Assembly: GCA_045805065.1 (NCBI GenBank)
Contig: JBJMMA010000164.1
Span: 1-13,205, forward strand
Direction: 5' to 3'
DNA length: 13,205 nucleotides
Source: Bdellovibrionia bacterium
GTDB lineage: Bacteria; Bdellovibrionota; UBA1018
The notes under the pieces are model-generated. The model was not told the DNA's origin, did no database searches, and saw nothing but the letters and a program-made list of their open reading frames with translations. Below, piece after piece: positions 1 through 13,205 of the stretch. Position 1 is the first letter of the stretch, and each line of letters opens with the position of its first letter. A program made the position numbers and the translations under genes.

Positions 1-720
1 GTGGGACCCCTGGTTGTCAATTCCGAGGCTGAAAAGTTCTCAGTCTATCGCTCTCCTGCCGATGACCGCGGCAAATCCGAGGGCGCGTTTGAGATCAAGA
101 CTTCATCCAGCGCTCAAGCCAACGTTACGCATCAGCTCAAAGGTGGAAAGCTTGGCGCATTGCTTGAAGTGCGCGACCAACTTTTGTCCGGTGTTCTCGA
201 CCGCTTGGATGAGATGGCTTTCAATCTCACTACTGCCGTGAACGACGTGCATACTCAGGGCTTCACGCGCCACGGCGCTCAAGGCATCGCGTTCTTTGAG
301 CCCATGGCCGGAAAAGAGCGCGCCTCTGAGTTCATCAATCTCTCTGAGGCCGTTCAGGCGAACGCCGCAAACATTGCGACCGCTGCGATTCCTGACGCTC
401 CAGGCGATAACCGCATCGCATTGGCTCTTGCCGGCCTTCAGTCACAAAAGCTGATGGGCGACGGCAAAGTCACCGTGGACGATTGGTACAACTCGATGGT
501 CAGCGACATCGGCGTTGCCTCAAGCCGCAATAAGATGGGCATCAATCAGCAGAAAGACATCATGCTTCAGCTCAACAAGATGCGCGACCAGATTTCGGGC
601 GTCTCAATTGATGAGGAAACCGCGAATCTGATGCAGTTTCAGCATACCTATGATGCATCGGCCAAGGTGATCTCTGTTGCCGATGAAATGCTCAAAACAG
701 TCCTGGAACTCAAACGGTGA
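1..720 (+). CDS. flgK: Flagellar hook-associated protein 1 (hook-filament junction), 3' part only; 5' end lies outside the window
   Basis: Contains GGKLGALLEVRD, AVNDVHTQG, PGDNRIALALA and the C-terminal ISGVSIDEETANLMQFQHTYDASAKVISVADEMLKTVL typical of FlgK. Directly upstream of flgL. The ORF is open at the window edge, so the GTG at position 1 is not a real start. Confidence 0.96.
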   Translation: MGPLVVNSEAEKFSVYRSPADDRGKSEGAFEIKTSSSAQANVTHQLKGGKLGALLEVRDQLLSGVLDRLDEMAFNLTTAVNDVHTQGFTRHGAQGIAFFEPMAGKERASEFINLSEAVQANAANIATAAIPDAPGDNRIALALAGLQSQKLMGDGKVTVDDWYNSMVSDIGVASSRNKMGINQQKDIMLQLNKMRDQISGVSIDEETANLMQFQHTYDASAKVISVADEMLKTVLELKR

Positions 721-730
721 GTAGAATTCG

Positions 731-1777
731 ATGCGCGTAACTGAGAACACTAATTTTGGAGCTGTCCGTGAGAGCATCCGCCGCAGTAAAGAGCGGATGG
801 AAAATCTCCAATTCCAAAACGCAACGTTGAAGAAGCTCAATACGCCCTCCGACGACCCGGTCGGAGCCGCAAAGGTTCTCGAAGTTCGCACCGACAAAGT
901 GAACAACGATCAATTCGTTTCAAACGGCAAACTTGCCGAGGCATTTCTCAATAATACCGACCATGCCCTCAGCCAGCTGGTAGACGTCGTTAATCGCGCC
1001 AAGGAAATTGCGATCGGTCAGTCGAGCGCCGCAAGCTCCACCAATGAAAGCCGCCTGGGCGTTGCTGAAGAAGTCACTCAGCTCTTCAATCAATCGGTCG
1101 CCATCGCGAACACTCGCATCGGCGATCGTTATCTTTTTGGCGGCTATAAAACGCAAACCCCTCCGGTCGACCCTAATGGCCGATACGTTGGAGATGAAGG
1201 CCAGATGATGGTTGAAATCTCAAAAGGGGTGTACCTCGCCATGAACGTTCCTGGCGTTGAAGCCTTCAACACGCAAAACTTAAAAAACCAGCAGCAGATG
1301 CCGGGCGAGGCGGATCCCAATTCTCCGGAGCCAGCCCAAAGCGGTGGAGCGAATCGAAAGCTCGCCTCCTTTGGACTCAACGGAAACGCTCGCACGCAGG
1401 CGTCTGACCCAGATACGCTGCCCGACCAGTCTGGTCCAGAAAATGTAAATGTCTTCGATGAGATTCAAAATCTGCGAATCGGTTTGTTAACCGGCGATCT
1501 CGATACGATTCGGAACACTCTGGACCGTTTTGATCAGATTCACGGGCAGCTTGTGGCCACTCGCGCAAAGATTGGCTCAAGACTCCAAGGGCTTGAGAGC
1601 ACTGGGCAGGCCATGGAACGGCACAACGTAACAAATGCACAACTGACTTCTGCATTGGAAGATGCCGACATGGCCAAGGTCGTGAGCGATCTTGCCAAAG
1701 AGGAAACTGTTTTTAGAAGTGCGCTGGCGAGCTCCCAAAAGCTCATTCAGCCCACTTTAATGGAGTTTTTAAAGTAG
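731..1777 (+). CDS. flgL: Flagellar hook-associated protein 3
   Basis: Flagellin-family N-terminus (MRVT..., KKLNTPSDDPVGAA, ANTRIGDRYLFGGYKTQTPP) and C-terminus (RAKIGSRLQGLE, LEDADMAKVVSDL, LIQPTLMEFLK). Follows flgK by 10 bp. Confidence 0.95.
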   Translation: MRVTENTNFGAVRESIRRSKERMENLQFQNATLKKLNTPSDDPVGAAKVLEVRTDKVNNDQFVSNGKLAEAFLNNTDHALSQLVDVVNRAKEIAIGQSSAASSTNESRLGVAEEVTQLFNQSVAIANTRIGDRYLFGGYKTQTPPVDPNGRYVGDEGQMMVEISKGVYLAMNVPGVEAFNTQNLKNQQQMPGEADPNSPEPAQSGGANRKLASFGLNGNARTQASDPDTLPDQSGPENVNVFDEIQNLRIGLLTGDLDTIRNTLDRFDQIHGQLVATRAKIGSRLQGLESTGQAMERHNVTNAQLTSALEDADMAKVVSDLAKEETVFRSALASSQKLIQPTLMEFLK

Positions 1778-1922
1778 TCTGGGAATTTTTAGAAGGAATA
1801 TAAGGTTGCAGGCGGCAGGGCGTTAGAGTAAACGTCTCCCCGTAATGGAATATGGCCGAGCCTGTGACAGGCTAGAGATTGTTGCTCATGTGGGGAGCCG
1901 ATCTCAAGGAGATTAAAAAAGT

Positions 1923-2147
1923 ATGTTAGTATTAACCCGTAAGCTGGGTGAAAGCATTGCCATTGATGACCACATCAAGATTGTAGTAGTTCAAATCAAG
2001 GGCAAGCAGGTTCGTCTAGGTATCCAGGCGCCGAAAGAAACTAAAATCCATCGTGAGGAAGTTTACACGGCGATCCAGGAACAGAATAAAGAAGCGGCGA
2101 AGAGCACTGCAGCAATCGCCCAAGTTTCCAAAGTGCTGAAGGGTTAA
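1923..2147 (+). CDS. csrA: Carbon storage regulator / translational repressor CsrA, FliW-regulated type
   Basis: MLVLTRKLGESIAI...VRLGIQAPKETKIHREEVY signature. Has Asn55 and a C-terminal helical extension, as in FliW-binding CsrA proteins. SD AAGGAG at 1906-1911. Confidence 0.98.
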   Translation: MLVLTRKLGESIAIDDHIKIVVVQIKGKQVRLGIQAPKETKIHREEVYTAIQEQNKEAAKSTAAIAQVSKVLKG

Positions 2148-2165
2148 GGTCCGGAGGACCCAACC
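2142..2165 (+). promoter_or_regulatory. Hairpin with a GGA loop at the csrA stop codon (candidate CsrA-binding site)
   Basis: GGTT-AA-GGTCC-[GGA]-GGACC-C-AACC. GGTCC (2148-2152) pairs with GGACC (2156-2160) around GGA. No U-tract follows, so it is not an intrinsic terminator. Confidence 0.45.
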
Positions 2166-2191
2166 TAAAAAGAGCATCACTTGCCCGATAA
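2166..2191 (+). promoter_or_regulatory. Putative sigma28 (FliA/SigD) promoter upstream of fliW
   Basis: TAAA (2166-2169), 14 nt spacer, then CCCGATAA (2184-2191), against the consensus TAAA-N15-GCCGATAA. Flagellar context, about 40 nt upstream of fliW. Confidence 0.6.
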
Positions 2192-2232
2192 GCTTTACGT
2201 GAGTCGGGTACTTATATTAGAAGGATATGAGC

Positions 2233-2781
2233 GTGATCATAGAAACAGGACGTTTTGGACAGCTCACCGTCGGCAACGACGAAATCGTTTCGATACCTCA
2301 AGGGATCCTTGGATTCGCGGAGTACACGAAGTTTTGCCTGGTTGACCCAGCAGACGACACTCTGATCCTTTGGCTCCAGTCGATCGAAAATCCTCAAATC
2401 GCTTTTGCTCTGCTTGAGCCTAAAATCTTCAAGCCAGAATACACGGCGCGTTTATCCGCAGCCGAGCTACGCGAACTCAAACTTGAGAACGTCAATCAAT
2501 CTGCTGTATTCAGCATCCTGACCATTCCAGAAGATGCAACGCAGATGACGGCGAACTTGAAGGCACCTTTGGTGATTAATCTTAAAGAGAACATCGCCAA
2601 ACAAGTCGTTCTTCAAGAGAACGAGTACAGCATCAAGCATCTGATGTTCAAAGAGCTGCGCGCACATCTCATCACGATCGGAACTCAAAAGCGTGCTCGT
2701 GAAGAGGCGGACCAACGCGCAATCCCGGTTTCGATTCGCGACATCCCACCTTCGCTCACGGTTAAAAGCCTTCAGGCTTAA
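2233..2781 (+). CDS. fliW: Flagellar assembly factor FliW (CsrA antagonist)
   Basis: IETGRFG, PQGILGF, LWLQS, FSILTIP, MTANLKAPLVIN and AKQVVL motifs. Adjacent to csrA. GTG at 2233 is preferred over ATG at 2227 because AAGGA (2221-2225) lies 7 nt before the GTG but only 1 nt before the ATG. Confidence 0.95.
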   Translation: MIIETGRFGQLTVGNDEIVSIPQGILGFAEYTKFCLVDPADDTLILWLQSIENPQIAFALLEPKIFKPEYTARLSAAELRELKLENVNQSAVFSILTIPEDATQMTANLKAPLVINLKENIAKQVVLQENEYSIKHLMFKELRAHLITIGTQKRAREEADQRAIPVSIRDIPPSLTVKSLQA

Positions 2782-2810
2782 TTTTCGTTCAGCGAAAGCA
2801 GGGAGTTTTC

Positions 2811-3923
2811 GTGATGATTCTCAGGATGAGTTTCTTCGTGTCGTGTTTTCTTCTCTGTGCGAGCGCGTACTCGCAGACAGAGGCACAACCTGCTTACCAA
2901 TGCTCCTCGGGCACTTCGCTTAAAGATGGCTTCCTGATCTATAAGACGGGAACTTTGCAGGCGGCCGCAAAGCATAAGGACGGCACCATCTCTGAGATCT
3001 CAGGTATCTTTGGAAACTTTGGGCCTAATGAAGGCTTCTTTGAAATCATGGCCATACGCCCTCTGACTTACGCTGAGCTGAACAATATGACGGTTCAGAT
3101 GAACCAGTATATGGCCAATCAGAATCAGCCGTTCCAGGGTGGTCTGATGAACTCGGGCGGTATGGGCGCAATGACTTTTGGTGTGGGATTTCCCGGGACC
3201 GACCCGAATGGCCAGGCTAATGGAATGGCCGGAGGCCAAGGCATATTCGGGGGCGGAGGCATGTCCGGTGGCAATGGTGCCCCTCAACCCGCTTCACCAC
3301 AACAATATGTGATGAGTGAAGAAGCGCCCGATCGCGAAGACATTGAATCCTCGCCCACCCGACAACTTGAACCCAAAGCAGGTGACGTGGCTGCAGCTCA
3401 AGCAAGACCAGGTCATAGGACTGCCCTAAGCCTAAGAGCCGGTGACATTGCTGCAACTCAACGAAAGTCGGGAGACAGGGTCCTACCACGCCGGGGAGAT
3501 CAGGCCCCATCGATGTCAGAAGGGGCCCGTAAGTTTCGGGAGCCGGTACAAGCAAAGACAGGCGATCTTGTCATGAAGCGTGGAGCGATCGCATTTTCTG
3601 CGCAGCTCGACTCACAGGGAAATATTCGTCAGATCTCATATCGTGATGGAAAAAGACCCACGGCGCTTTGGCGAGCCGGTGCAAGAAATCCTGCTGGTAG
3701 CGAGTCGGTTTACGCGCGTCTCAACGGCGAGCTCAGCAACATCAAATCACGCGCTTATTGCTGCACGCAAAACCCAGGCGCGAGCTGTGGCGATGTTCTC
3801 GATCGTGTTGGAGCTCAATCGTCACTTCGAACTGAAAAGCCATCCATCGGTCAGAGAATGCGGTCTGCCTGGTCAGACATGATCAATGCATTCAAATCTT
3901 CTTCAAGCTCCGAAGCCAAGTAA
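2811..3923 (+). CDS. Hypothetical secreted protein with a Gly/Met-rich segment and periodic xxGD repeats
   Basis: 370 aa ORF filling the gap after fliW. Sec signal peptide (RMSFFVSCFLLCASAYS|Q). GGGAG at 2801-2805 precedes GTG 2811 / ATG 2814. No family recognised. Confidence 0.8.
   Translation: MMILRMSFFVSCFLLCASAYSQTEAQPAYQCSSGTSLKDGFLIYKTGTLQAAAKHKDGTISEISGIFGNFGPNEGFFEIMAIRPLTYAELNNMTVQMNQYMANQNQPFQGGLMNSGGMGAMTFGVGFPGTDPNGQANGMAGGQGIFGGGGMSGGNGAPQPASPQQYVMSEEAPDREDIESSPTRQLEPKAGDVAAAQARPGHRTALSLRAGDIAATQRKSGDRVLPRRGDQAPSMSEGARKFREPVQAKTGDLVMKRGAIAFSAQLDSQGNIRQISYRDGKRPTALWRAGARNPAGSESVYARLNGELSNIKSRAYCCTQNPGASCGDVLDRVGAQSSLRTEKPSIGQRMRSAWSDMINAFKSSSSSEAK
3381..3500 (+). repeat. Degenerate intragenic tandem repeat (60 bp period, 30 bp sub-period)
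   Basis: ggtgacgtggctgcagctcaa (3381-3401) vs ggtgacattgctgcaactcaa (3441-3461), 18/21 identical. Gly-Asp/His codon pairs at 3381, 3411, 3441, 3471 and 3495. Confidence 0.75.
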
Positions 3924-3941
3924 GTTCAGCTGTCTCATCGT

Positions 3942-4949
3942 TTAAATCAATCGCATCATCGCCGAAACGCTGATCGTCGTCGTGCGAATCGGTTGATCGA
4001 GATACCAATCCATCCTTGGCGTAAATGAGAGCACGTCGTTGAATTGGTATCTGAGGCTTGGCATCAAACCAAAGACTTGAGTGCCACGCTCTTTGAAGAA
4101 ACCCTCTCCATCTTCGACCGGAATATCAGGACCAAACTGAGAGCCCGCGTGGAACATCAGCCCTGACTCAAGTGAGCGAGAGATTCGATATCCGCCTTGG
4201 ATCCCCGTGGAGAGGCGAGTGCTGATCAACGGACCCGCTTCATTTCGTCCATATAAGCCTGTCTTCACAGAGCAATGACCCGAGATCGAATAAGGCGTCC
4301 CATGAAAATGCAATCGAGGCGACGTGGATACCGAGAGCCCGCCCCAAGATGAGCGACGGCGAGAGTTATCACTCACAGGGAAAGACGCCGATATCATCAT
4401 ATTGGAGTGAAGGTTGTTTTCGCCAACCTTTGCCTGATACAAATCTAAAATCGTAAAGCGAAGTTGAGGATCTTCAATCGTGAGCTGGCCCTTACGACGC
4501 CCTGAGAATGGCTCAGAAACGTCCAGCGCAGGACCTAGAAGATATCCTGGCGTGAACTCATAATTGGCAGCCAGCGTGTGTCTGAGGCGATAACCGGGCT
4601 GATGCCCCCCGTGTCCCGCAGAATGGCTAGAAGTGCCTGACGCTTCTGGATCGCATGTTGCGGTAGCATTTCGAGCATGTCGATTCACGCCAGCTGATCC
4701 GCCTTCATCAGGAACCATGTCCATCTTGTTGAGATGAGAGTCGAGATTATTCAATCCCGGAGTCTGAAAGCTCGAACTGAACATCAGAGAGAAGGGGCGA
4801 ACCGAATGCATTTTTCGCGCAGACTCAATCGCATCCGAGTCTTGAACCATTCCCGAGACATCTGCCGCGTGCGCAAATTCCGCGCTCACCAGGAGTGCCC
4901 CAAAAGCCAAGACTGCAGCCGCTGAACGATAATTCTGAAAAATCCCCAC
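3942..4949 (-). CDS. Predicted outer-membrane beta-barrel protein with a His/Met-rich N-proximal loop
   Basis: Signal peptide ending AEFAHA|A. Many alternating amphipathic strands (LRHTLAANYEF, GIQGGYRISRSLESGLMF, LMPSLRYQFNDVLSFTPRMDWY, TTISVSAMMRLI). The fold is inferred by eye. Confidence 0.7.
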   Translation of the reverse strand: MGIFQNYRSAAAVLAFGALLVSAEFAHAADVSGMVQDSDAIESARKMHSVRPFSLMFSSSFQTPGLNNLDSHLNKMDMVPDEGGSAGVNRHARNATATCDPEASGTSSHSAGHGGHQPGYRLRHTLAANYEFTPGYLLGPALDVSEPFSGRRKGQLTIEDPQLRFTILDLYQAKVGENNLHSNMMISASFPVSDNSRRRSSWGGLSVSTSPRLHFHGTPYSISGHCSVKTGLYGRNEAGPLISTRLSTGIQGGYRISRSLESGLMFHAGSQFGPDIPVEDGEGFFKERGTQVFGLMPSLRYQFNDVLSFTPRMDWYLDQPIRTTTISVSAMMRLI

Positions 4950-5026
4950 GCGCCACTGATTCCACGGCAGAGATAGTTTGTAAAGCTAACTATTCTGGAA
5001 AGAAGTGGCAGATTGAGTAAAGCGGT

Positions 5027-5752
5027 TTAGACGCGTGGGCTCAGGCGCGCTTGTTTTGCCATTTCAAGATAAGCTAAAGCTTCGCGATTATTAGGATCCA
5101 TGTCGCGAACTGCTTCCCACTCAAGCTCGGCATCGAGCACATTGCCTTGGCTGTAATGGAGGAGTCCAAGTTGGATGCGGGACGGCAAAAACTCAGGCGC
5201 TTCAGCCTTGAGTTGCTGGAGCTCTTGTACGGCGCGGCTCAGGAAGCCCTTTTTAGCGTAGGCTTTTGCGCGACGGATCCGGATCTCATAGGTCGTTGGA
5301 TCCAAGATCGCAGCCTTGCTGTACTCTTCGATCGCCGCATCATAGCGTCGGTAACGGAAGTAAAGATCTGCAAGCTCCATGTGTTTGACGGCAAACTTGC
5401 GATCAATGCCACGATCATTGCCCGCATGCTTATGCGTGACGGACTGATTGGCGAGTTCAAAAACCTTCTTGGCTTCGTCGTATTTACCGACGTCGTTGTA
5501 AAGAACCGAGAGACAAATCGCTGCATCCGTATGATGAGGATCCAAAGAGAGCGACTTGCGAAGATTCTCAACGGCTTTTCCCACTTGTCCCTGGAAGTAA
5601 TACATCACTCCCAGCAAGTACCAGGCGTCAGCTGCTTCGGCGTCTTTCTTGAGCTTGTCGCGAATCAGCGGCTCTGCGCGCGAAAATTCGCGACGTGAGA
5701 GCAGGTCCTGAATCGTGCGGTCGCCGGAGCGAAGATCTGACTTCTCAACCAT
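5027..5752 (-). CDS. Soluble tetratricopeptide-repeat protein
   Basis: Repeated TPR patterns (AWYLLGVMYYFQGQVGKAVENLRKSLSLDP; LADLYFRYRRYDAAIEEYSKAAILDP; LGLLHYSQGNVLDA...MDPNN). No signal peptide. Likely start is ATG 5752, with GGGAAG 8 nt upstream, overlapping the bamD stop. Confidence 0.9.
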   Translation of the reverse strand: MVEKSDLRSGDRTIQDLLSRREFSRAEPLIRDKLKKDAEAADAWYLLGVMYYFQGQVGKAVENLRKSLSLDPHHTDAAICLSVLYNDVGKYDEAKKVFELANQSVTHKHAGNDRGIDRKFAVKHMELADLYFRYRRYDAAIEEYSKAAILDPTTYEIRIRRAKAYAKKGFLSRAVQELQQLKAEAPEFLPSRIQLGLLHYSQGNVLDAELEWEAVRDMDPNNREALAYLEMAKQARLSPRV

Positions 5753-6494
5753 TCTGGTCACTTCCCTTTTTCTCAGCGTGCGGGTGCTTTGCCTCGTAAT
5801 CCGAAATCTTCTCGAGCTTTTCTTTGGCTTCTGTTGCCGCAGACGACTCTGGATAGTTGGAAATCACGCGCTGAAAGCGAGGCTTTGCCGAGTCATAGAA
5901 ATCGCGCTTGAAATAGAAGTTACCGATATAAAGCTCTTTGCTGGCCAGTAGCCCGCGCGCAGCTTCCAAATCATTGCGAGCTTCCTGAGCGTCTGTCGCG
6001 TTTGGATAGCGGCGAAGATAGTCTTGATATGCATCCACGGACTTTTGTGCAGGTGTCAGGTCACGAGCCACGTTTGTTGGGCTGTCCTTGAAGTAGGACT
6101 TCCCGATGCGAAACATCGCGTAAGGAGCTTTTTCATGTTTTGGATGAAGATCACGAAAGGTTTCGTATGCAGCCGCCGCTTCAGCAAAATCTTCCTGAAG
6201 AAAGTAAACATCTGCCAAGCGAAGCTGAGCGTCGACCGCGTACTTGGAATAAGGAAATTTGTTACGAATCGAACGAAGCTTATCGATTGCGATCTGATAG
6301 TGATCGTTCTTGATATCGTCTTCGGCGTCTTTGTAGAGAGCGGCAGGATCCGCTTCGCTGACTTGAGCAGTCGTGCAGCTTGTCAGCAATGAGCTGACCG
6401 ATGCACCCGTCAGGGTCAAGAGGACAGCGAAAACAAGCGGGCTCATTCCAGTTCTCGTCAATTTAATCAGGTTAATCAAGTTAATCAGGCGCAT
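5745..6494 (-). CDS. bamD: Outer membrane protein assembly factor BamD (ComL/YfiO) lipoprotein
   Basis: Lipobox LLTS-C. Motifs FPYSKYAVDAQLRLADVYF, FRDLHPKHEKAPYAMFRIG, RDLTPAQ, YLRRYPN, LASKELYIGNFY and PRFQRVISNYP. The start is uncertain (ATG 6494 or 6446); the ORF-track start at 6566 overlaps the upstream gene. Confidence 0.93.
   Translation of the reverse strand: MRLINLINLIKLTRTGMSPLVFAVLLTLTGASVSSLLTSCTTAQVSEADPAALYKDAEDDIKNDHYQIAIDKLRSIRNKFPYSKYAVDAQLRLADVYFLQEDFAEAAAAYETFRDLHPKHEKAPYAMFRIGKSYFKDSPTNVARDLTPAQKSVDAYQDYLRRYPNATDAQEARNDLEAARGLLASKELYIGNFYFKRDFYDSAKPRFQRVISNYPESSAATEAKEKLEKISDYEAKHPHAEKKGSDQNG
6463..6489. repeat. 3 x 9 bp tandem repeat TTAATCA(G/A)G
   Basis: ttaatcagg (6463-6471), ttaatcaag (6472-6480), ttaatcagg (6481-6489). 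Reads LIN-LIN-LI(K) in the bamD frame. Confidence 0.9.
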
Positions 6495-6519
6495 ACTGAT
6501 AGTGGTCTTCCCATAGAAT

Positions 6520-7347
6520 TTAATCGATGACCAAGAAATCTTTAGCTCTGACCCATCCGATTCCATCCGGAGAAAAGCGCACCTGCAGCCATTCTTCTGT
6601 TGTCGTAGGAGAGGCGTTCGACGCAGGTCCGCCAGGCACGCTCATCTCGCTCGATGCACTGCCCAGAATTCGAACCTTTCCTCCAGCATCCACTTGTCCA
6701 AGCTCAACATACGTATCGCCAGGACCACTCCGAACGGGTTGACGGCTCATGGCGATGGCAGGGCTGCGGGAGCTTGCTAGTGTTTCAGTCCAGTAAAGCC
6801 CACCCACAAGAGCCATTGCCACGGCGCCGATTAAAGCAGCGGGTCTGAGAAGGGTTTCTTTCAAGTCGCGGCTTTTCCAATAATTTCTGATCCAAAAGAC
6901 GGCCAAGATCAACATGATGGCGCCCAAAACGCCGCGGATCTCTTCCAACGAGACTTGGTCCGCAAGAGTTTCCGTCCAGTTGGAGGCAGGATCCAGCTTT
7001 CCAGATCCCAAAGTCTTTTCGAGCTCAGATCGGGTCAGCTCGAGATTGTGATAAATATCCGGATCATGGCGTTTCAAGCGGTTGGCTTTTTCGAAATACC
7101 CCAAGGCCGCTCCCGTGCGGCCTTGACGATAGGCAATCGTTCCCAGGTTGTAGAAATAAAGTGGATCGTTACCGCTGGGTTGTGAGCTTAACGATTGAAA
7201 AGCGTCGTCATATTTTCCAGACTGATACAGTTGACGAGCTTCCTGCCAACGAGACCAGCTGCCTTCTTCTGCATGTGCCATCTGTACCGATGTGAGAGCA
7301 AAAGGATCGGCTATTAGGCTGGCAAAAAGAAGCGCAAAAATCATCAT
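6520..7347 (-). CDS. BatE-like protein: signal peptide, TPR, two TM helices, C-terminal bacterial SH3 domain
   Basis: TPR motif LYFYNLGTIAYRQGRTGAALGYFEKANRLKRHDPDIYHNL. Two hydrophobic helices. SH3b motif VRSGPGDTYVELGQVDAGGKVRIL...WLQVRFSPDGIGWV. This is the architecture of BatE. Confidence 0.8.
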   Translation of the reverse strand: MMIFALLFASLIADPFALTSVQMAHAEEGSWSRWQEARQLYQSGKYDDAFQSLSSQPSGNDPLYFYNLGTIAYRQGRTGAALGYFEKANRLKRHDPDIYHNLELTRSELEKTLGSGKLDPASNWTETLADQVSLEEIRGVLGAIMLILAVFWIRNYWKSRDLKETLLRPAALIGAVAMALVGGLYWTETLASSRSPAIAMSRQPVRSGPGDTYVELGQVDAGGKVRILGSASSEMSVPGGPASNASPTTTEEWLQVRFSPDGIGWVRAKDFLVID

Positions 7348-7356
7348 ATAGCCATC

Positions 7357-7385
7357 AAGTTAGCGAGGGGTCCGTTTCCTTGCAA
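7357..7385 (-). promoter_or_regulatory. Putative sigma70 promoter for the BatE-like/bamD cluster
   Basis: Minus strand reads TTGCAA (7385-7380), 17 nt, TAACTT (7362-7357). The ATG at 7347 follows 9 nt later with no SD, suggesting a near-leaderless mRNA. Confidence 0.5.
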
Positions 7386-7408
7386 CAAAAATAAGCTCAT
7401 GATATCTT
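7380..7408 (+). promoter_or_regulatory. Putative sigma70 promoter (extended -10) for the succinyltransferase operon
   Basis: TTGCAA (7380-7385), 17 nt, TATCTT (7403-7408), preceded by TGn (7400-7402). Confidence 0.65.
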
Positions 7409-7431: not shown

Positions 7432-8835
7432 ATGACACAAGCCCAGTCTTTAATCGAATCCTCGAGCTATCGTTCAGCAAAAAACGAACTCCTGAAAACC
7501 ATCACCGAAGCCTCCCAAAAAATTCGCGGCGTTCGTCCTCCGAGCGGATCGCCCGAAGTGAAAGAAGCTTACGCAAAGCTGCTTCAGGATTTTGCGCACG
7601 ACAAAGGACGCGAGCCTTACTTCCCTTATCTTTCTTCGGGAATCGGCGCAGGCCCTTACGTGGAGCTGATGGATGGAAGCGTGAAGATGGATTTGATCAC
7701 TGGTATTGGCGTCAACTTCTTTGGTCACTCGCATCCGGAGCTGATGGCCGAGATGATCGATGCGGTTCCTTCTGATCTGTTTCAAGGAAACCTGCAGCCA
7801 GGAATCGAAGCCCAGAAGCTCTTGAGTACACTCCTGGCCGAAGTGAGCGGCAAATCAAGACTCAAGCACGGCTGGATCACGACTTGCGGTACGATGGCCA
7901 ATGAAAACGCGCTGAAGATGCTTCGCCAAAAGAAAGCTCCAGCCACGAAAATTTTGGCGTTCAAAGATTGCTTCTGCGGTCGCTCCACAGCGATGGCAGA
8001 ACTGACCGACAACGCAGGCTATCGCCAGGGTCAGCCTGTCTATGGCGAAGTCGAATACCTTTCATTCTACAGCCCAACCCTTGGGCTTGAGGCTAGCGTA
8101 AAGAAAACCTTGGGCGAGATGCAGGAGCATTTTGCTCGCTATCCAGGAAAATTCTGCGCTTTGATGATGGAACCGATTCAGGGTGAAGGCGGCTTTAATG
8201 CGGCCCCACGCGAGTTTTATGTTCGCGTGTTTGAAGAAGCAAAAAAAGCAGGCCTCATGATCTGGCTCGATGAGATTCAAACTTTTGGTCGCACGGGCGA
8301 GCTCTTTGCCTTCCAAAAGCTTGGACTCGATGAGTATGTCGATATCGTTACCGTGGCCAAGATGCTTCAGGCATCTGTCTTCCTTTGGACGGAAGAGCTG
8401 ACTCCTAAGCCAGGTCTTGTCGCGGGAACTTTTGCTGGACCTACCGCAGGACTTCGCGCAGCAACCAAGTCTCTCGAAATTCTCAAGCGCGATGGCTATC
8501 TGGGCCCTCAAGGCAAAATCGAAAAACTCTCCGCGCATTTTGTGAAGAACCTGAGCCGCATGCGTGAGACCACCTGCCAAGGCATGGTAGGCGAGATCCG
8601 CGCTGTCGGCGGAATGATTGCTTTCCTTCCATTCGAAGGAAAAATGGATGACTGCAAAGTCGTCTTGAAGAAACTCTTTGATCTGGGCGTTGTGGCTTTT
8701 TACTGCGGCCATGGCCCCTATTTGATTCGTATGCTCCCACCTCTGGGTGCCATGACCGAAGCGGACATTGATGTCGCATGCGGCCTGATTGAAAAAGCTT
8801 TGCATGAAGTGAAAGCGAGTAAGGCGGAAAAATGA
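7432..8835 (+). CDS. Class III PLP-dependent aminotransferase, probable succinyl/acetyl-ornithine transaminase (AstC/ArgD-like)
   Basis: DLITGIGVNFFGHSHP, GTMANENALK, FCGRS, MMEPIQGEGG, WLDEIQTFGRTG and the PLP lysine in VTVAK. In an operon with astA and astD. Start ATG 7432 is preferred (SD GGGGAA at 7420-7425; ATG 7399 lies inside the predicted promoter). Confidence 0.88.
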   Translation: MTQAQSLIESSSYRSAKNELLKTITEASQKIRGVRPPSGSPEVKEAYAKLLQDFAHDKGREPYFPYLSSGIGAGPYVELMDGSVKMDLITGIGVNFFGHSHPELMAEMIDAVPSDLFQGNLQPGIEAQKLLSTLLAEVSGKSRLKHGWITTCGTMANENALKMLRQKKAPATKILAFKDCFCGRSTAMAELTDNAGYRQGQPVYGEVEYLSFYSPTLGLEASVKKTLGEMQEHFARYPGKFCALMMEPIQGEGGFNAAPREFYVRVFEEAKKAGLMIWLDEIQTFGRTGELFAFQKLGLDEYVDIVTVAKMLQASVFLWTEELTPKPGLVAGTFAGPTAGLRAATKSLEILKRDGYLGPQGKIEKLSAHFVKNLSRMRETTCQGMVGEIRAVGGMIAFLPFEGKMDDCKVVLKKLFDLGVVAFYCGHGPYLIRMLPPLGAMTEADIDVACGLIEKALHEVKASKAEK

Positions 8836-10313
8836 AAAGACTCCTGGAAGAAGCAAAACGGATGATCCGAATCAATTCGGAAACATCCCGCGGGAATGAA
8901 GAGCTCGCGAACTACACCTTAGCGCTGCTGCAAGACCGAGGTCTCAAAGCCTCGCTTCAGCAAGTCACGCACTCGCTGGATGATATTTCAAAGCGCCAGT
9001 TCAACGTCATTGGGATTTTGGGTGATCCGCTGGTCGATCGCAAAATCCGCAAGGGACTTTTGCTGAACACGCATCTTGATACCGTTAGCCCAGGTCTTTC
9101 TGAGAACTGGACAGAAACGGGGGGCGATCCGTTTGCCGCCACGATCAAGGAAAACAAGATTTACGGCCTTGGAACGGCTGACGTAAAAATCGACTTTTTG
9201 TGCAAGCTTCACGCGGTCACCAAATTCCGTGAAAAGAAGCTCAAGATGCCGATCTATCTGGTTGGCACCTGTGGCGAGGAGCTTGGAATGTTTGGCGCAC
9301 GCTATCTGATCAAATCAGGCGCGCTGAATCCCCGCTTTGTCGTCGTCGGTGAGCCATCAGGACTCAAGCTTGTGCATGCGCATAAGTGCTTGAACATTTT
9401 CCGCGTGGCCGTCGGATTCCAACAAGTTGAGCGCGATGCTCGCGGCTTTAATCGCCGCATTGATCTTCATTCCTTTGGAAAGTCTGCGCACAGCTCTTAT
9501 CCGCACCTGGGCGTGAACGCCATTGTGGGCGCGATGGATTTCCTTCGTGCTGCAACGGATGCGGGCTTTGAGTTCCGCTTCACGCAGTTTGATGGCGGCG
9601 ACACGATCAATAAGGTTCCTGATCGCGCTCTCGCGCAGTTCTATGTCACGTCCCACCAGTTTGAGGACTTCAAGCGCTTCTTCCGTGACTTTGTCTCGGC
9701 AAAGGGCAAGGACAAGAACTTCCGCGTGGATCTTGGCGGGATTGGCGATACGGGCGTGCGCTTCCTGCCTGAAGCGCTTTATCCATGCCTTAACGAGATT
9801 GTGGATTTCTTCCGCGGCATCTCGCGCGACTTTGAGAAGGTCAAGGATGAGTCTTACAATCCAGCCTTCTCAACGATCAACTTTGGAAAGCTCAAGCAAT
9901 CGCAAGGAGCTCTCACGCTTGGATTTGATCTGCGCCTCCTTCCGGATCTTGTTCCAGAGGCGATCGAAAAGCATATTCAAGAAGGCGTTCAAGCCATTGC
10001 TTCGAAATATCCTCATCTCAACATCACCGCGGTTCGCGAGCGCATGAACCCGGGCCTCAACATGACGAACGAGCATGAGCTTGTGAAAGTCTGCAAAGAC
10101 GCGATGAGCGGCGCTGGCGTTGAGCCGATTCTCGACAAGAAAGCGACGTCGACTGAAGCCGCGCAGTATTTCAGCGCAGGCTACGAGGCAGTTGTCTTTG
10201 GGCCCGGTATGTCTCAAGGCAATAGTCACAGCCCGAACGAGCACAACCTCCTGGATCATATCGAAAAGGCGACGCTCTTTTACGAGAAGCTCATAGAAAA
10301 GGTGTGTTTATGA
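8832..10313 (+). CDS. M20 family metallo-amidohydrolase (ArgE/DapE-like); candidate desuccinylase
   Basis: Metal-ligand motifs LLLNTHLDTV, IYGLGTADVK, CGEELG, VVGEPS, GKSAHSSYP and GNSHSPNEH. ATGA overlap with the upstream gene. Confidence 0.9.
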   Translation: MKRLLEEAKRMIRINSETSRGNEELANYTLALLQDRGLKASLQQVTHSLDDISKRQFNVIGILGDPLVDRKIRKGLLLNTHLDTVSPGLSENWTETGGDPFAATIKENKIYGLGTADVKIDFLCKLHAVTKFREKKLKMPIYLVGTCGEELGMFGARYLIKSGALNPRFVVVGEPSGLKLVHAHKCLNIFRVAVGFQQVERDARGFNRRIDLHSFGKSAHSSYPHLGVNAIVGAMDFLRAATDAGFEFRFTQFDGGDTINKVPDRALAQFYVTSHQFEDFKRFFRDFVSAKGKDKNFRVDLGGIGDTGVRFLPEALYPCLNEIVDFFRGISRDFEKVKDESYNPAFSTINFGKLKQSQGALTLGFDLRLLPDLVPEAIEKHIQEGVQAIASKYPHLNITAVRERMNPGLNMTNEHELVKVCKDAMSGAGVEPILDKKATSTEAAQYFSAGYEAVVFGPGMSQGNSHSPNEHNLLDHIEKATLFYEKLIEKVCL

Positions 10314-11353
10314 TTTTGTTGCGCGAAATCCAGGAGAGGGATCTTGATGCTCTTGAGCGCTTTTCCCAGATTCCTGGCTTTATCAACCTGACGAACGACA
10401 AGGATGCTCTTCGCGAGAAGATCCTCCGCTCCGTGGCGTCTTTTCGGGATAACGTCGAAGAGTTCAGCGAACGAAAGTACATCTTCGTCGCCGAAGATCT
10501 CGAAAATCACCGCGTCGTCGGAACGTCGATGGTTGCTGCGCAACACGGCTCTGAAGAGTCGCCTCACTTCTATTTCCAGATCGGAAGCGAAGAGCGTTAC
10601 TCGGACACCATCAACACGGGCTTTATTCACGGAACGCTTGAGCTCAAATTCGATACCGATGGTCCTTCTGAGATCGGTGGCCTCGTTTTAGATCCAGAGA
10701 TGAGAAACTCGGACGCCCGCGTGGGCCGCCAGATCTCATTCATTCGCTTTCTCTTTATGGGGCTCAATCGCGAGCGCTTTAAAGACAAGGTGATTGCTGA
10801 ACTTCTTCCACCGCTCAATAAGCGCGGACAATCTCCTCTTTGGGAAGCCATCGGCCGTCGCTTCACCAATATGGATTACTGGGAAGCCGACGCTCTTTGC
10901 CAAAAAAACAAAGAGTTCATCTTCTCGCTCTTTCCATCGGGGAAGATCTACACGACTTTCTTTCCTGCTGAAGCCCGCAACGCGCTTGGAAAAGTCGGTA
11001 AAGACACTGAGCCGGTTGTGCACATGCTCAAGAAGATCGGCTTTAAATATAAAAACCAAGTTGATCCGTTCGATGGCGGCCCGCACCTTTGGGCTGATAT
11101 CGCTGAGCTTGCTCCCGTAAAAAGGATCGCTCGTTATCAGTTTGCTCCATCGGCTGAAGCTTCTTCCACCGCAACGCGCGAATCAGGTATTCTATGCCCA
11201 GCTCACCAGGAACCTGGTCAGTTCAGGGCGATCGCTATTCAGGCGGTTATCGAAGGCGATAAACTCTTTGTGCCCGAAGTCAAAGACGCAAGAATGCAAT
11301 CCGTTCTCGGCATTGGTACCGGAGACCGCGTTGTGTTCATGCCATACTACTAG
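10310..11353 (+). CDS. astA: Arginine (/ornithine) N-succinyltransferase
   Basis: YIFVAEDLENHRVVGTS, GPSEIGGLVLDP, RFLFM...RERFKDKVIAEL, SPLWEAIGRRFTNMDYWEAD, GFKYKNQVDPFDGGP. ATG 10310 overlaps the M20 stop (ATGA). Confidence 0.93.
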   Translation: MILLREIQERDLDALERFSQIPGFINLTNDKDALREKILRSVASFRDNVEEFSERKYIFVAEDLENHRVVGTSMVAAQHGSEESPHFYFQIGSEERYSDTINTGFIHGTLELKFDTDGPSEIGGLVLDPEMRNSDARVGRQISFIRFLFMGLNRERFKDKVIAELLPPLNKRGQSPLWEAIGRRFTNMDYWEADALCQKNKEFIFSLFPSGKIYTTFFPAEARNALGKVGKDTEPVVHMLKKIGFKYKNQVDPFDGGPHLWADIAELAPVKRIARYQFAPSAEASSTATRESGILCPAHQEPGQFRAIAIQAVIEGDKLFVPEVKDARMQSVLGIGTGDRVVFMPYY

Positions 11354-11375
11354 GCTGTATTACTAGGAGGCTGAA

Positions 11376-12917
11376 ATGTCCCATACGTTGAAGAAATTTG
11401 CAGTACGCGGCAACTACATCAACGGGAAGTTCACACCACCGGCTGCATCGAGTGATGTCAGCGGTGAGTGGGCCAGCAAAAGCCCGGCGAATTTCTCGGA
11501 TGAGATTGGGCGCTTTCAATACAGCTATCAAGCTGTTGATGCGGTTGTCGAAGCCGCACGAGCTGCCTTCAATCCCTGGAGAAAGCGACCTCTTTCTGAG
11601 CGCGCAGAGCTTTTGAAGAAGTTTCAGGCTGCCGTCAAGAAACGCGAAGAAGATTTCATTCACGTCATTGCCCGCGAAGTCGGAAAGCCTGCGTGGGAAG
11701 CAAAGACGGAAGTCGCAGCGGTTCTCGGCAAAGTCGATATCACGATCAACGACAGCATGCGCCTGGTGTCGGGATTTGAGATCCAAAAGATCATGGAAAA
11801 CACCAATGGCGTTTGCCGCTATCGCCCGCACGGCGTGATGGCAGTCATTGGTCCGTTCAACTTTCCTGCGCATTTGCCAAATGGCCACATCGTGCCAGCG
11901 CTTCTCACCGGCAACACGGTGATCTTCAAGCCCTCTGAAAAGGCACCGATGGTTGGCCAGCTCATGGCCGAATGTTTTGAAGAAGCAGGATTCCCTGCTG
12001 GCGTCTTCAACATGATCCAGGGCAATGGCGAGCTTGGACGCAGACTCTGCGTGCATGAGGACGTCTCGGGCGTGCTTTTCACGGGCTCTTATGAGGTCGG
12101 AACGCGCATCAAGCAAGACACTCTTCAGCAGCACTGGAAGATTCTGGCGCTTGAGATGGGTGGAAAAAACCCAACGATCGTTTGGGGAGATGCGAACCTG
12201 GATGTTGCGATTCAGGAAACACTCTTCTCCGCTTATGTCAGCGCGGGTCAGCGTTGCAGCGCTACCAGCCGCGTGATTGTTGAGAACAAGATTCTTGAGC
12301 AATTCATTGATCGCTTTCACACTCGCGCCAAAGCGTTCTCAATCGGACATCCACTCGATAACCCATTTATGGGACCCCTTGTCGAGTCTGCAGCCGTGGA
12401 TCGCTACATGAAGTTTTTGGGAATTGCCCAGCGCGAAGGTGCTGAGATCATCATGCGCGGCAAAGCCCTTGAACTTGAGCACCCGGGCAATTATGTCACG
12501 CCATCTATATGCTGGGTGAAGGACTCATCCATCGCTCAAACCCGTAAGAGCGTTTATCAACAGACTGAGCTATTTGCTCCAAACGTTGCGATCCTGGGCG
12601 TAGATACGCTTGAGCAAGCGATCGCACAAGCAAACGAAACTCAGTATGGCCTTGCTGCAACGATCTTTACTTCGGATCGCGCAAACTATGAGAAGGCTGT
12701 TGATGATCTCGAAATGGGTCTTGTGAACTGGAACAAGTCCACGGTCGGGGCTTCATCGAAGCTTCCGTTTGGTGGTTTCAAGAAGAGCGGAAACCACTTC
12801 CCAACGGCACTGACGTCGACGCTCTATTGCGCGGCTCCGATTGCTTCACTTGAAGTGGCTGAACCAAAACTTGCTGGCGCGAATGCTTATCCGGGTCTCA
12901 ACTGGGAGAGCAGCTAA
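11376..12917 (+). CDS. astD: N-succinylglutamate 5-semialdehyde dehydrogenase (aldehyde dehydrogenase family)
   Basis: RPHGVMAVIGPFNFPAHLPNGHIVPALLTGNTVIFKPSE (AstD-type), FTGS, LALEMGGKNP, catalytic SAGQRCSA, ELFAP and PFGGFKKSGNH. SD AGGAGG at 11365-11370. Next to astA. Confidence 0.9.
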   Translation: MSHTLKKFAVRGNYINGKFTPPAASSDVSGEWASKSPANFSDEIGRFQYSYQAVDAVVEAARAAFNPWRKRPLSERAELLKKFQAAVKKREEDFIHVIAREVGKPAWEAKTEVAAVLGKVDITINDSMRLVSGFEIQKIMENTNGVCRYRPHGVMAVIGPFNFPAHLPNGHIVPALLTGNTVIFKPSEKAPMVGQLMAECFEEAGFPAGVFNMIQGNGELGRRLCVHEDVSGVLFTGSYEVGTRIKQDTLQQHWKILALEMGGKNPTIVWGDANLDVAIQETLFSAYVSAGQRCSATSRVIVENKILEQFIDRFHTRAKAFSIGHPLDNPFMGPLVESAAVDRYMKFLGIAQREGAEIIMRGKALELEHPGNYVTPSICWVKDSSIAQTRKSVYQQTELFAPNVAILGVDTLEQAIAQANETQYGLAATIFTSDRANYEKAVDDLEMGLVNWNKSTVGASSKLPFGGFKKSGNHFPTALTSTLYCAAPIASLEVAEPKLAGANAYPGLNWESS

Positions 12918-12950: not shown

Positions 12951-12988
12951 AAAAGGCGGAGTGGATTTCTCCATTCCGCCTTTTTCTT
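12951..12988. terminator. Bidirectional rho-independent terminator between astD and the csp gene
   Basis: AAAAGGCGGAGTGGA-TTTC-TCCATTCCGCCTTTT (one G-U pair on +). T-tract on both strands. Sits between convergent genes. Confidence 0.92.
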
Positions 12989-13025: not shown

Positions 13026-13205
13026 TTAGTTAGCTGCTGCTGCTGCTGCTTTAGCAACGTTTGCAGCTTGGGGGCCCTTAGGGCCTTCGATCAATTCGAA
13101 TTCGACCTTTTGGCCTTCAGCGAGAGTCTTGAATCCATCGCCTGCAATAGCAGTGTAGTGAACGAACACATCGCGGTCCGTGCCTTCTGCTTGAATGAAT
13201 CCGTA
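13026..13205 (-). CDS. Cold-shock protein (CspA family), 3' part; 5' end outside the window
   Basis: Manual translation from 13205 gives [59 protein letters not shown], with RNP1 (YGFI) and RNP2 (VFVHY). Absent from the ORF track. Confidence 0.97.
13033..13050. repeat. (GCT)6 trinucleotide microsatellite overlapping the poly-Ala tail of the Csp
   Basis: gctgctgctgctgctgct on +; five GCA codons plus one GCT on the minus strand. Confidence 0.9.

Follow-up and report, generated by a model that had tools for sequence, protein, structure and literature searches.

The subject of this analysis is a 13,205-b stretch of DNA, here called the window, that makes up the whole of contig C164 in a 4.22-Mb draft genome (label G000; 262 contigs, 94% complete) of a Bdellovibrionia bacterium. 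Judged by the names that its close homologues bear, it belongs to the Bacteriovoracaceae/Oligoflexia part of the Bdellovibrionota. Four plus-strand open reading frames (ORFs) at positions 7432-12917 form one unit that encodes an aminotransferase, a metallohydrolase of the M20 family, an AstA-family N-succinyltransferase, and an AstD-like dehydrogenase. We consider it probable that this operon is a catabolic module that converts an N2-succinylated basic amino acid to glutamate, with the M20 hydrolase doing the job of AstE. From the observed gene content, gene order, distribution, and M20 residues, together with the predicted M20 fold, we infer the substrates and the order of the steps. AstA would succinylate ornithine and, in this genome, also arginine, and an AstB encoded elsewhere would convert N2-succinylarginine to N2-succinylornithine. 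The class-III aminotransferase would then yield N-succinylglutamate semialdehyde, which the AstD-like dehydrogenase would convert to N-succinylglutamate, and the M20 enzyme would split N-succinylglutamate into glutamate and succinate in place of the absent AstE. The M20 protein is thus a probable non-orthologous replacement of AstE within a known pathway. The elements of the operon are as follows.

7380-7408, plus strand: promoter-like block TTGCAA-N17-TATCTT with TG right before the second hexamer, conserved in relatives
7432-8835 (ORF from 7399), plus strand: class-III (omega) aminotransferase; Aminotran_3 PF00202, 180.9 bits
8832-10313, plus strand: M20 metallohydrolase of 493 aa; Peptidase_M20 PF01546, 104.7 bits, and M20_dimer PF07687, 53.5 bits
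10310-11353, plus strand: AstA-family N-succinyltransferase; PF04958, 326.3 bits (cut-off, 29.4)
11376-12917, plus strand: AstD-like N-succinylglutamate-5-semialdehyde dehydrogenase; Aldedh, 427.1 bits
12951-12984, plus strand: intrinsic terminator with a 15-bp stem and a T-run, common to the operon and a convergent cold-shock gene

An earlier reading of this DNA, made from the sequence alone (the sequence-only reading), had described a closed four-gene unit with two ATGA overlaps and a terminator at 12951, and all of these were found again. The stop codon of the aminotransferase gene overlaps the start codon of the M20 gene at 8832-8835, and that of the M20 gene overlaps the start of astA at 10310-10313; a 22-nt spacer that includes AGGAGG precedes astD. 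For the first gene, an ATG at 7432 agrees with the N termini of homologues and has GGGGA 7 nt upstream. The terminator hairpin has a folding energy of -24.2 kcal/mol (z = -6.5), and 0 of 200 shuffled sequences folded as well. Although the contig ends 288 b past the last gene of the operon, the unit is closed, since the terminator is followed by the convergent cold-shock gene at 13032-13205.

In the domain search, the M20 protein matched only PF01546 and PF07687 and contained no AstE_AspA catalytic domain. Six of its residues, H81, D117, E149, E150, E174, and H466, align to the two-metal ligands and general base of Escherichia coli ArgE, and all six are present. We take the corresponding ArgE residues to be H80, D112, E144, E145, E169, and H355, a numbering consistent with the alignment. 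The AlphaFold (AF2) model of the protein (predicted local distance difference test [pLDDT], 89.4; predicted TM-score [pTM], 0.86) had ArgE 7rsf as its best structural match in Foldseek (E value, 6.8e-27). Its lid/dimerization domain is about 100 aa larger than that of ArgE and resembles that of the PepD-type dipeptidase 2qyv (query TM-score [TMq], 0.70). Against curated models, the protein scored 174.7 bits with TIGR01892 (ArgE; cut-off, 297.7), 49.9 bits with TIGR01246 (cut-off, 361.8), and 143 bits with TIGR01910 (cut-off, 217.6). ArgE and DapE hydrolyze N-acyl and N-succinyl L-amino acids. The operon M20 protein resembles these two M20 family enzymes in its fold, in its two-metal site and general base, and in its presumed N-acyl-L-amino acid substrate, but it falls below every curated cut-off, carries the larger lid, and lies in a catabolic context. 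With AstE, a member of the AstE/AspA zinc hydrolase family, it would share the proposed reaction, whereas the fold is unrelated. The nearest protein-atlas clusters, with 698 and 58 members, are named just "M20/M25/M40 metallo-hydrolase," and automatic annotation labels the homologues "acetylornithine deacetylase/succinyl-DAP desuccinylase-like" (DAP, diaminopimelate).

The comparison covered 150 other sampled Bdellovibrionota genomes (151 with G000). Members of the M20 family were counted by profile search at an E value of <=1e-40, a strong AstE match was defined as one of at least 275 bits, and adjacency of M20 and astA was established by comparing the coordinate tables of the AstA and M20 matches by hand. 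AstA was present in 113 of the 150 genomes, the M20 family in 75, AstB in 16, and AstE at the 275-bit level in 10, all of which belong to family f17. Gene order in relatives had been put forward earlier as a test of the proposal, and the pairing was conserved: in 65 of the 75 M20-bearing genomes, the M20 gene immediately precedes astA in the same orientation. In the 10 genomes without the pair, AstA is lacking altogether in 7, was not found in 1, and lies, like the M20 gene, at a contig end in 2. Of 80 named loci, 67 have the two genes as same-strand neighbors, including loci in a complete Bdellovibrio bacteriovorus genome and in metagenome-assembled genomes (MAGs) labelled Myxococcota, Thermodesulfobacteriota, and Lindowbacteria. 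The two genes converge at 5 loci, 4 have no AstA, and at 4 the contig stops short of AstA. The aminotransferase gene is directly upstream in 46 of the 80, and AstB was found within 4 kb in none of the 80. These loci come from, among others, complete Bdellovibrio genomes, one of which is B. bacteriovorus strain Bd16, a Bacteriovorax stolpii MAG, and MAGs labelled Binataceae in addition to the three groups above.

AstE and the M20 protein occurred together in no sampled genome, and AstE was not found in nine family relatives of G000 or in the rest of the window's order. Family f17, the only one with a true AstE, has AstA in 23/23 genomes and the M20 family in 0/23, and all 7 of its aminotransferase-AstA-AstD loci examined are without M20. 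The known substrate of AstE is N-succinylglutamate. The occurrence of a true AstE in f17 genomes that have no AstB indicates that N-succinylglutamate is made without AstB in this family. A non-orthologous replacement would be expected to give just such complementarity of M20 and AstE. Together with the linkage to astA and the retention of the six catalytic and metal residues, the complementarity lends good comparative support to the replacement of AstE by M20 that the sequence-only reading had advanced. Six f17 genomes (loci L050 to L055) also have a second, more divergent AstA (30-36% identity), with a class-III aminotransferase gene before it and no AstD gene after it.

A genome-wide hidden Markov model (HMM) search, proposed with the sequence-only reading, agreed with its claim that AstE is lacking: the best match to TIGR03242 in this 94%-complete genome scored 22.9 bits (cut-off, 305.65). 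Neither arginine deiminase nor an arginase equivalog was found in the same genome. It does have a gene for an agmatinase-like protein (177 bits; cut-off, 174.3) and a hutG-like gene that is split over two contig ends. The further claim that AstB is lacking holds for the window only, because a separate contig carries astB (G000:C46:2550-3911), whose product scored 708.4 bits with TIGR03241 (cut-off, 538.3). The neighbors of astB, encoding an APP1-like phosphatase and a DUF2461 protein, are unrelated to the pathway; the neighborhood is not conserved, and no ast gene was present in any of the AstB loci of 16 relatives. The sole known substrate of AstB is N2-succinylarginine. Since this genome has a full AstB equivalog and the operon AstA gene is its only one, its AstA should accept arginine.

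The sequence-only reading had also proposed a complete route from ornithine that is independent of AstB. For this genome that description is wrong, since a bona fide astB is present and arginine can enter the route. An ornithine-only route does fit most relatives: of the 65 M20-astA pairs, 52 come from genomes that gave no AstB match, and many of these genomes are 96-100% complete. AstB was present in 16 genomes besides G000; 13 of the 16 also carry the M20-astA pair, and AstE was found in none. This distribution suggests that M20-AstA-AstD is an old, widespread Bdellovibrionota module that mostly works without AstB, i.e., from ornithine. The window's lineage and a few others have AstB besides.

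All four operon proteins score under the NCBI curated equivalog cut-offs. For AstA, the scores were 237.8 bits with TIGR03243 (cut-off, 284.35) and 215 bits with TIGR03244 (cut-off, 391), and its match in the PDB was 1yle (1e-32). The best NCBIfam match of the AstD-like protein was NF006992, succinylglutamate-semialdehyde dehydrogenase (468.3 bits; cut-off, 514); it scored 432.7 bits with TIGR03240 (cut-off, 579.3), and its three top PDB matches, 5u0l (8.7e-102), 3ju8, and 4kna, are all AstD. The aminotransferase scored 95.5 bits with TIGR03246 (astC), against a cut-off of 609.95, indicating that it is not an AstC orthologue. Its best PDB matches were gamma-aminobutyrate (GABA) and acetylornithine aminotransferases, which are about equally distant (approximately 1e-28). 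It is a divergent class-III enzyme, orthologous to neither AstC nor ArgD, and is presumed to act as the N2-succinylornithine transaminase.

Several observations weigh against a role of the M20 protein as the desuccinylase of an ornithine and arginine pathway. The true substrate of the module could differ, given that AstA and AstD fall below the equivalog cut-offs and the aminotransferase is no orthologue of AstC. Absence of astE from the genome is not proven, as the assembly is 94% complete. The best TIGR03242 match is a 348-aa AstE/AspA-superfamily protein on contig C159 (PF24827, 139.2 bits; nearest curated model, DoeB, 99.8 bits with a cut-off of 402.7), which could perform desuccinylation in this genome. 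The complementarity of M20 and AstE involves one family only and is therefore in effect one evolutionary event. Family f11 has AstA-AstD (AstA in 15 of 20 genomes) with neither M20 nor AstE, and no hydrolase gene is adjacent in the three loci examined, so a third kind of solution for the last step exists. Finally, as described next, many relatives carry M20 copies that have lost catalytic residues. In the three f11 loci (L189 to L191), an aminotransferase gene is also present in one.

The catalytic and metal residues were checked in an alignment of 45 M20 copies from relatives. The full set was present in 29 of the 45 copies, and it was intact in the window's M20 protein and in the five aligned copies closest to it; in the distant families f13, f14, f16, and f23, all copies examined were intact save one that has only the conservative replacement D117E. 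The other 16 copies have replacements at one to six of these positions, such as D117S/N/Q, E149A/R/G, E174A/K/R, and H466G/Q/Y. All of them come from families f1-f9, in the order or class of the window (loci L011-L013, L015-L020, L022, L025, L027, L028, L030, L032, and L033), and 9 are still followed directly by astA, whose start codon overlaps their stop codon. Hydrolysis is therefore not the sole reason for keeping the gene there, or else another desuccinylase is used. A quick tree, with SH-aLRT (Shimodaira-Hasegawa-like approximate likelihood ratio test) support only and with the split copy L033 left out, requires at least three separate losses of catalytic residues. The degenerate reading frames are still open and full length, and their products could be pseudoenzymes. 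At loci L016, L017, L019, and L022, identity was 34-44% for the degenerate M20 protein versus 53-65% for the neighboring AstA, and this faster divergence suggests relaxed constraint. In these lineages, either desuccinylation would proceed by other means or the M20 protein would have a second, noncatalytic role.

Seven genomes carry an M20 copy and no AstA (G025, G049, G080, G100, and G117, of genus g12, and G065 and G106). Their M20 copies are all degenerate, and it is these genomes, within the window's class, that encode a true arginase (TIGR01229 score above the cut-off). The pattern looks as if an arginase route had taken over from the succinyltransferase route and left the M20 gene as a relic beside an aldehyde dehydrogenase gene.

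The degenerate copies bear most directly on the explanation that the M20 protein is not a desuccinylase, that another hydrolase, such as the AstE/AspA-superfamily protein on C159, performs the last step, and that M20 persists because of another function, catalytic or not, such as partnership with AstA. The repeated loss of catalytic residues from copies that still precede astA, and the AstE_AspA_cat domain found in this genome, fit such an explanation. We nevertheless regard it as unlikely, because the six residues are all retained in the window's protein, in 29 of the 45 copies from relatives, and in nearly all of the distant-family copies, and the faster evolution of the degenerate copies relative to their astA neighbors fits decay and not a new function. 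In addition, proteins with an AstE_AspA_cat domain turn up only here and there in genomes that have the operon (f13, 1 of 20 genomes; f16, weak partial matches only), so a protein of the C159 type cannot be the general solution. A particular form of this idea makes the M20 protein a stoichiometric partner of AstA beyond its service as an AstE stand-in, with pseudoenzymes scaffolding or regulating AstA in several lineages of the window's order and desuccinylation moved to another enzyme. The two genes would be coupled in translation by their stop/start overlap. We judge this form to be decidedly unlikely; a prediction of the complex of AstA and M20 scored 0.01 against a mark of 0.32, a result that weighs neither way on binding.

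The remaining alternatives change the substrate. With the same series of reactions (succinylation, transamination, oxidation, and desuccinylation), the module might break down another basic amino acid, lysine or 2,4-diaminobutyrate for example. The scores of AstA, AstD, and especially the aminotransferase below the curated cut-offs leave room for this, and the source of ornithine is unclear in that most carriers are without AstB and no over-cut-off arginase was found in f1, f13, or f14. We consider it quite improbable given that the three solved structures closest to the dehydrogenase are all of AstD enzymes, that family f17 pairs a true AstE with the M20-less form of the operon, and that G000 and 13 other carriers have a true AstB. 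If the M20 protein instead acted on N2-succinylornithine in the manner of ArgE, then AstA, AstB, and M20 would convert arginine to free ornithine, which would continue by an unsuccinylated route via the aminotransferase and dehydrogenase. The closest solved and curated relatives of the M20 protein are indeed acetylornithine deacetylases, but in the 52 pairs without AstB such an activity would simply undo the succinylation of ornithine in a futile cycle, and the dehydrogenase is AstD-like and not a pyrroline-5-carboxylate (P5C) or glutamate semialdehyde (GSA) dehydrogenase; this activity is accordingly very improbable. That the M20 protein is the biosynthetic DapE or ArgE of the organism, placed in the operon by chance, is exceedingly improbable. 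G000 does have DapD (NF008808, 347 bits; cut-off, 204), a proteobacterial-type (M20-type) DapE was found in none of the 151 genomes, and a full arginine biosynthesis cluster, argH-argG and argC-argJ-argB-argF, is present on G000:C198 (locus L184:3623-10475). Yet ArgE is not needed, since ArgJ is present; the distributions of M20 and DapD are unrelated (19/20 versus 1/20 genomes in f13, 9/9 versus 0/9 in f14, 0/23 versus 20/23 in f17, and 0/20 versus 19/20 in f11); and in the loci examined the M20 gene is linked to astA and astD and never to dap or arg genes.

Two observations concern these biosynthetic genes themselves. The cluster on C198 contains no argD, and a second generic class-III aminotransferase is encoded on C53. 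At G000:C183:29433-31010 (locus L185:5416-7010, minus strand), dapD adjoins the gene for a 249-aa MpaA-like protein of the M14/AstE_AspA type, and by coordinate comparison this adjacency or near-adjacency recurs in many genomes of the phylum. The MpaA-like protein may be an unrecognized substitute for DapE or may serve in DAP recycling; as a DapE substitute, it would be the mirror image of the exchange of M20 for AstE.

The sequence-only reading had placed a promoter at 7380-7408, and this part of its description stands less firmly than the rest. A promoter consensus scan did not call the site, which matches at 8 of 12 positions; elsewhere, the scan found 1 site versus 3.0 expected. A 29-nt block, TTGCAACAAAAATAAG-N5-TGATAT, upstream of the first gene is nonetheless exact in the upstream regions of 7 of 11 relatives, and the other 4 comprise 1 with one mismatch, 1 with a partial copy, and 2 with none. 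Searched with 0 mismatches, the block is present once in the 4.2-Mb genome, at the operon only. Because it is kept where the flanking DNA of the relatives no longer aligns and has a single genomic copy, the block is a real operon-specific cis-element. A promoter, a regulator site, or a combination of the two would fit its conservation. A sigma-54 promoter upstream, judged by eye, was ruled out by the unsuitable GG-N10-GC spacing.

The system was also compared with known ones. Like the arginine succinyltransferase (AST) pathway of E. coli (astCADBE) and Pseudomonas (aruCFGDBE), it has an AstA-family protein, an AstD-like protein, a class-III aminotransferase, and, in this genome, a true AstB, and its proposed chemistry likewise ends in glutamate and succinate. 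Unlike that pathway, it has an M20 gene in the operon and no AstE found in the genome, its aminotransferase is not an AstC orthologue (95.5 bits; cut-off, 610), its astB is unlinked and was not found in most operon-bearing relatives, and its gene order is aminotransferase-M20-AstA-AstD. The ornithine succinyltransferase AstO of Acinetobacter, an AstA homologue, is an experimental precedent for ornithine entry (PMC12375414). The second ast locus of A. baumannii (astN, astO, and astP) is similar in that an AstA homologue and a succinylornithine transaminase provide AstB-independent ornithine entry; it is unlike the present operon in that it is partial and needs the AstD and AstE that the main operon encodes, whereas here the operon has its own dehydrogenase and an M20-type hydrolase (PMC12375414).

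The chemistry proposed for the window is that of the known AST pathway; the M20 protein in the place of AstE and the conserved M20-AstA-AstD module appear to be undescribed. In a literature search that left most subscription journals outside its scope, no description was found of an M20 protein as a succinylglutamate desuccinylase or of this operon in Bdellovibrio. The operon seems to fill a small gap in a well-known pathway, with the last step carried out by another type of hydrolase than that of E. coli. If this assignment is true, a function would be given to a sizeable, generically named M20 subfamily, the "missing AstE" gap would be filled in Bdellovibrio, Bacteriovorax, and their relatives, and automatic annotations would be corrected. 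The findings suggest that these predators use the succinyltransferase route chiefly for ornithine, with AstB as an optional add-on for arginine. Since homologues occur in the culturable B. bacteriovorus, the idea is directly testable there. Missing AstE may extend past the Bdellovibrionota, because Caulobacter vibrioides, one of the built-in control genomes, matched AstA and AstB and not AstE.

The rest of the window, at 1-7347, carries flagellar genes (the 3' part of flgK, then flgL and fliW), two ORFs without a family match at 2811-3923 (plus strand) and 3942-4949 (minus strand), and a minus-strand run encoding a tetratricopeptide repeat (TPR) protein, BamD, and a TPR/SH3 protein. The TPR/SH3 gene is upstream of the operon and divergent from it.

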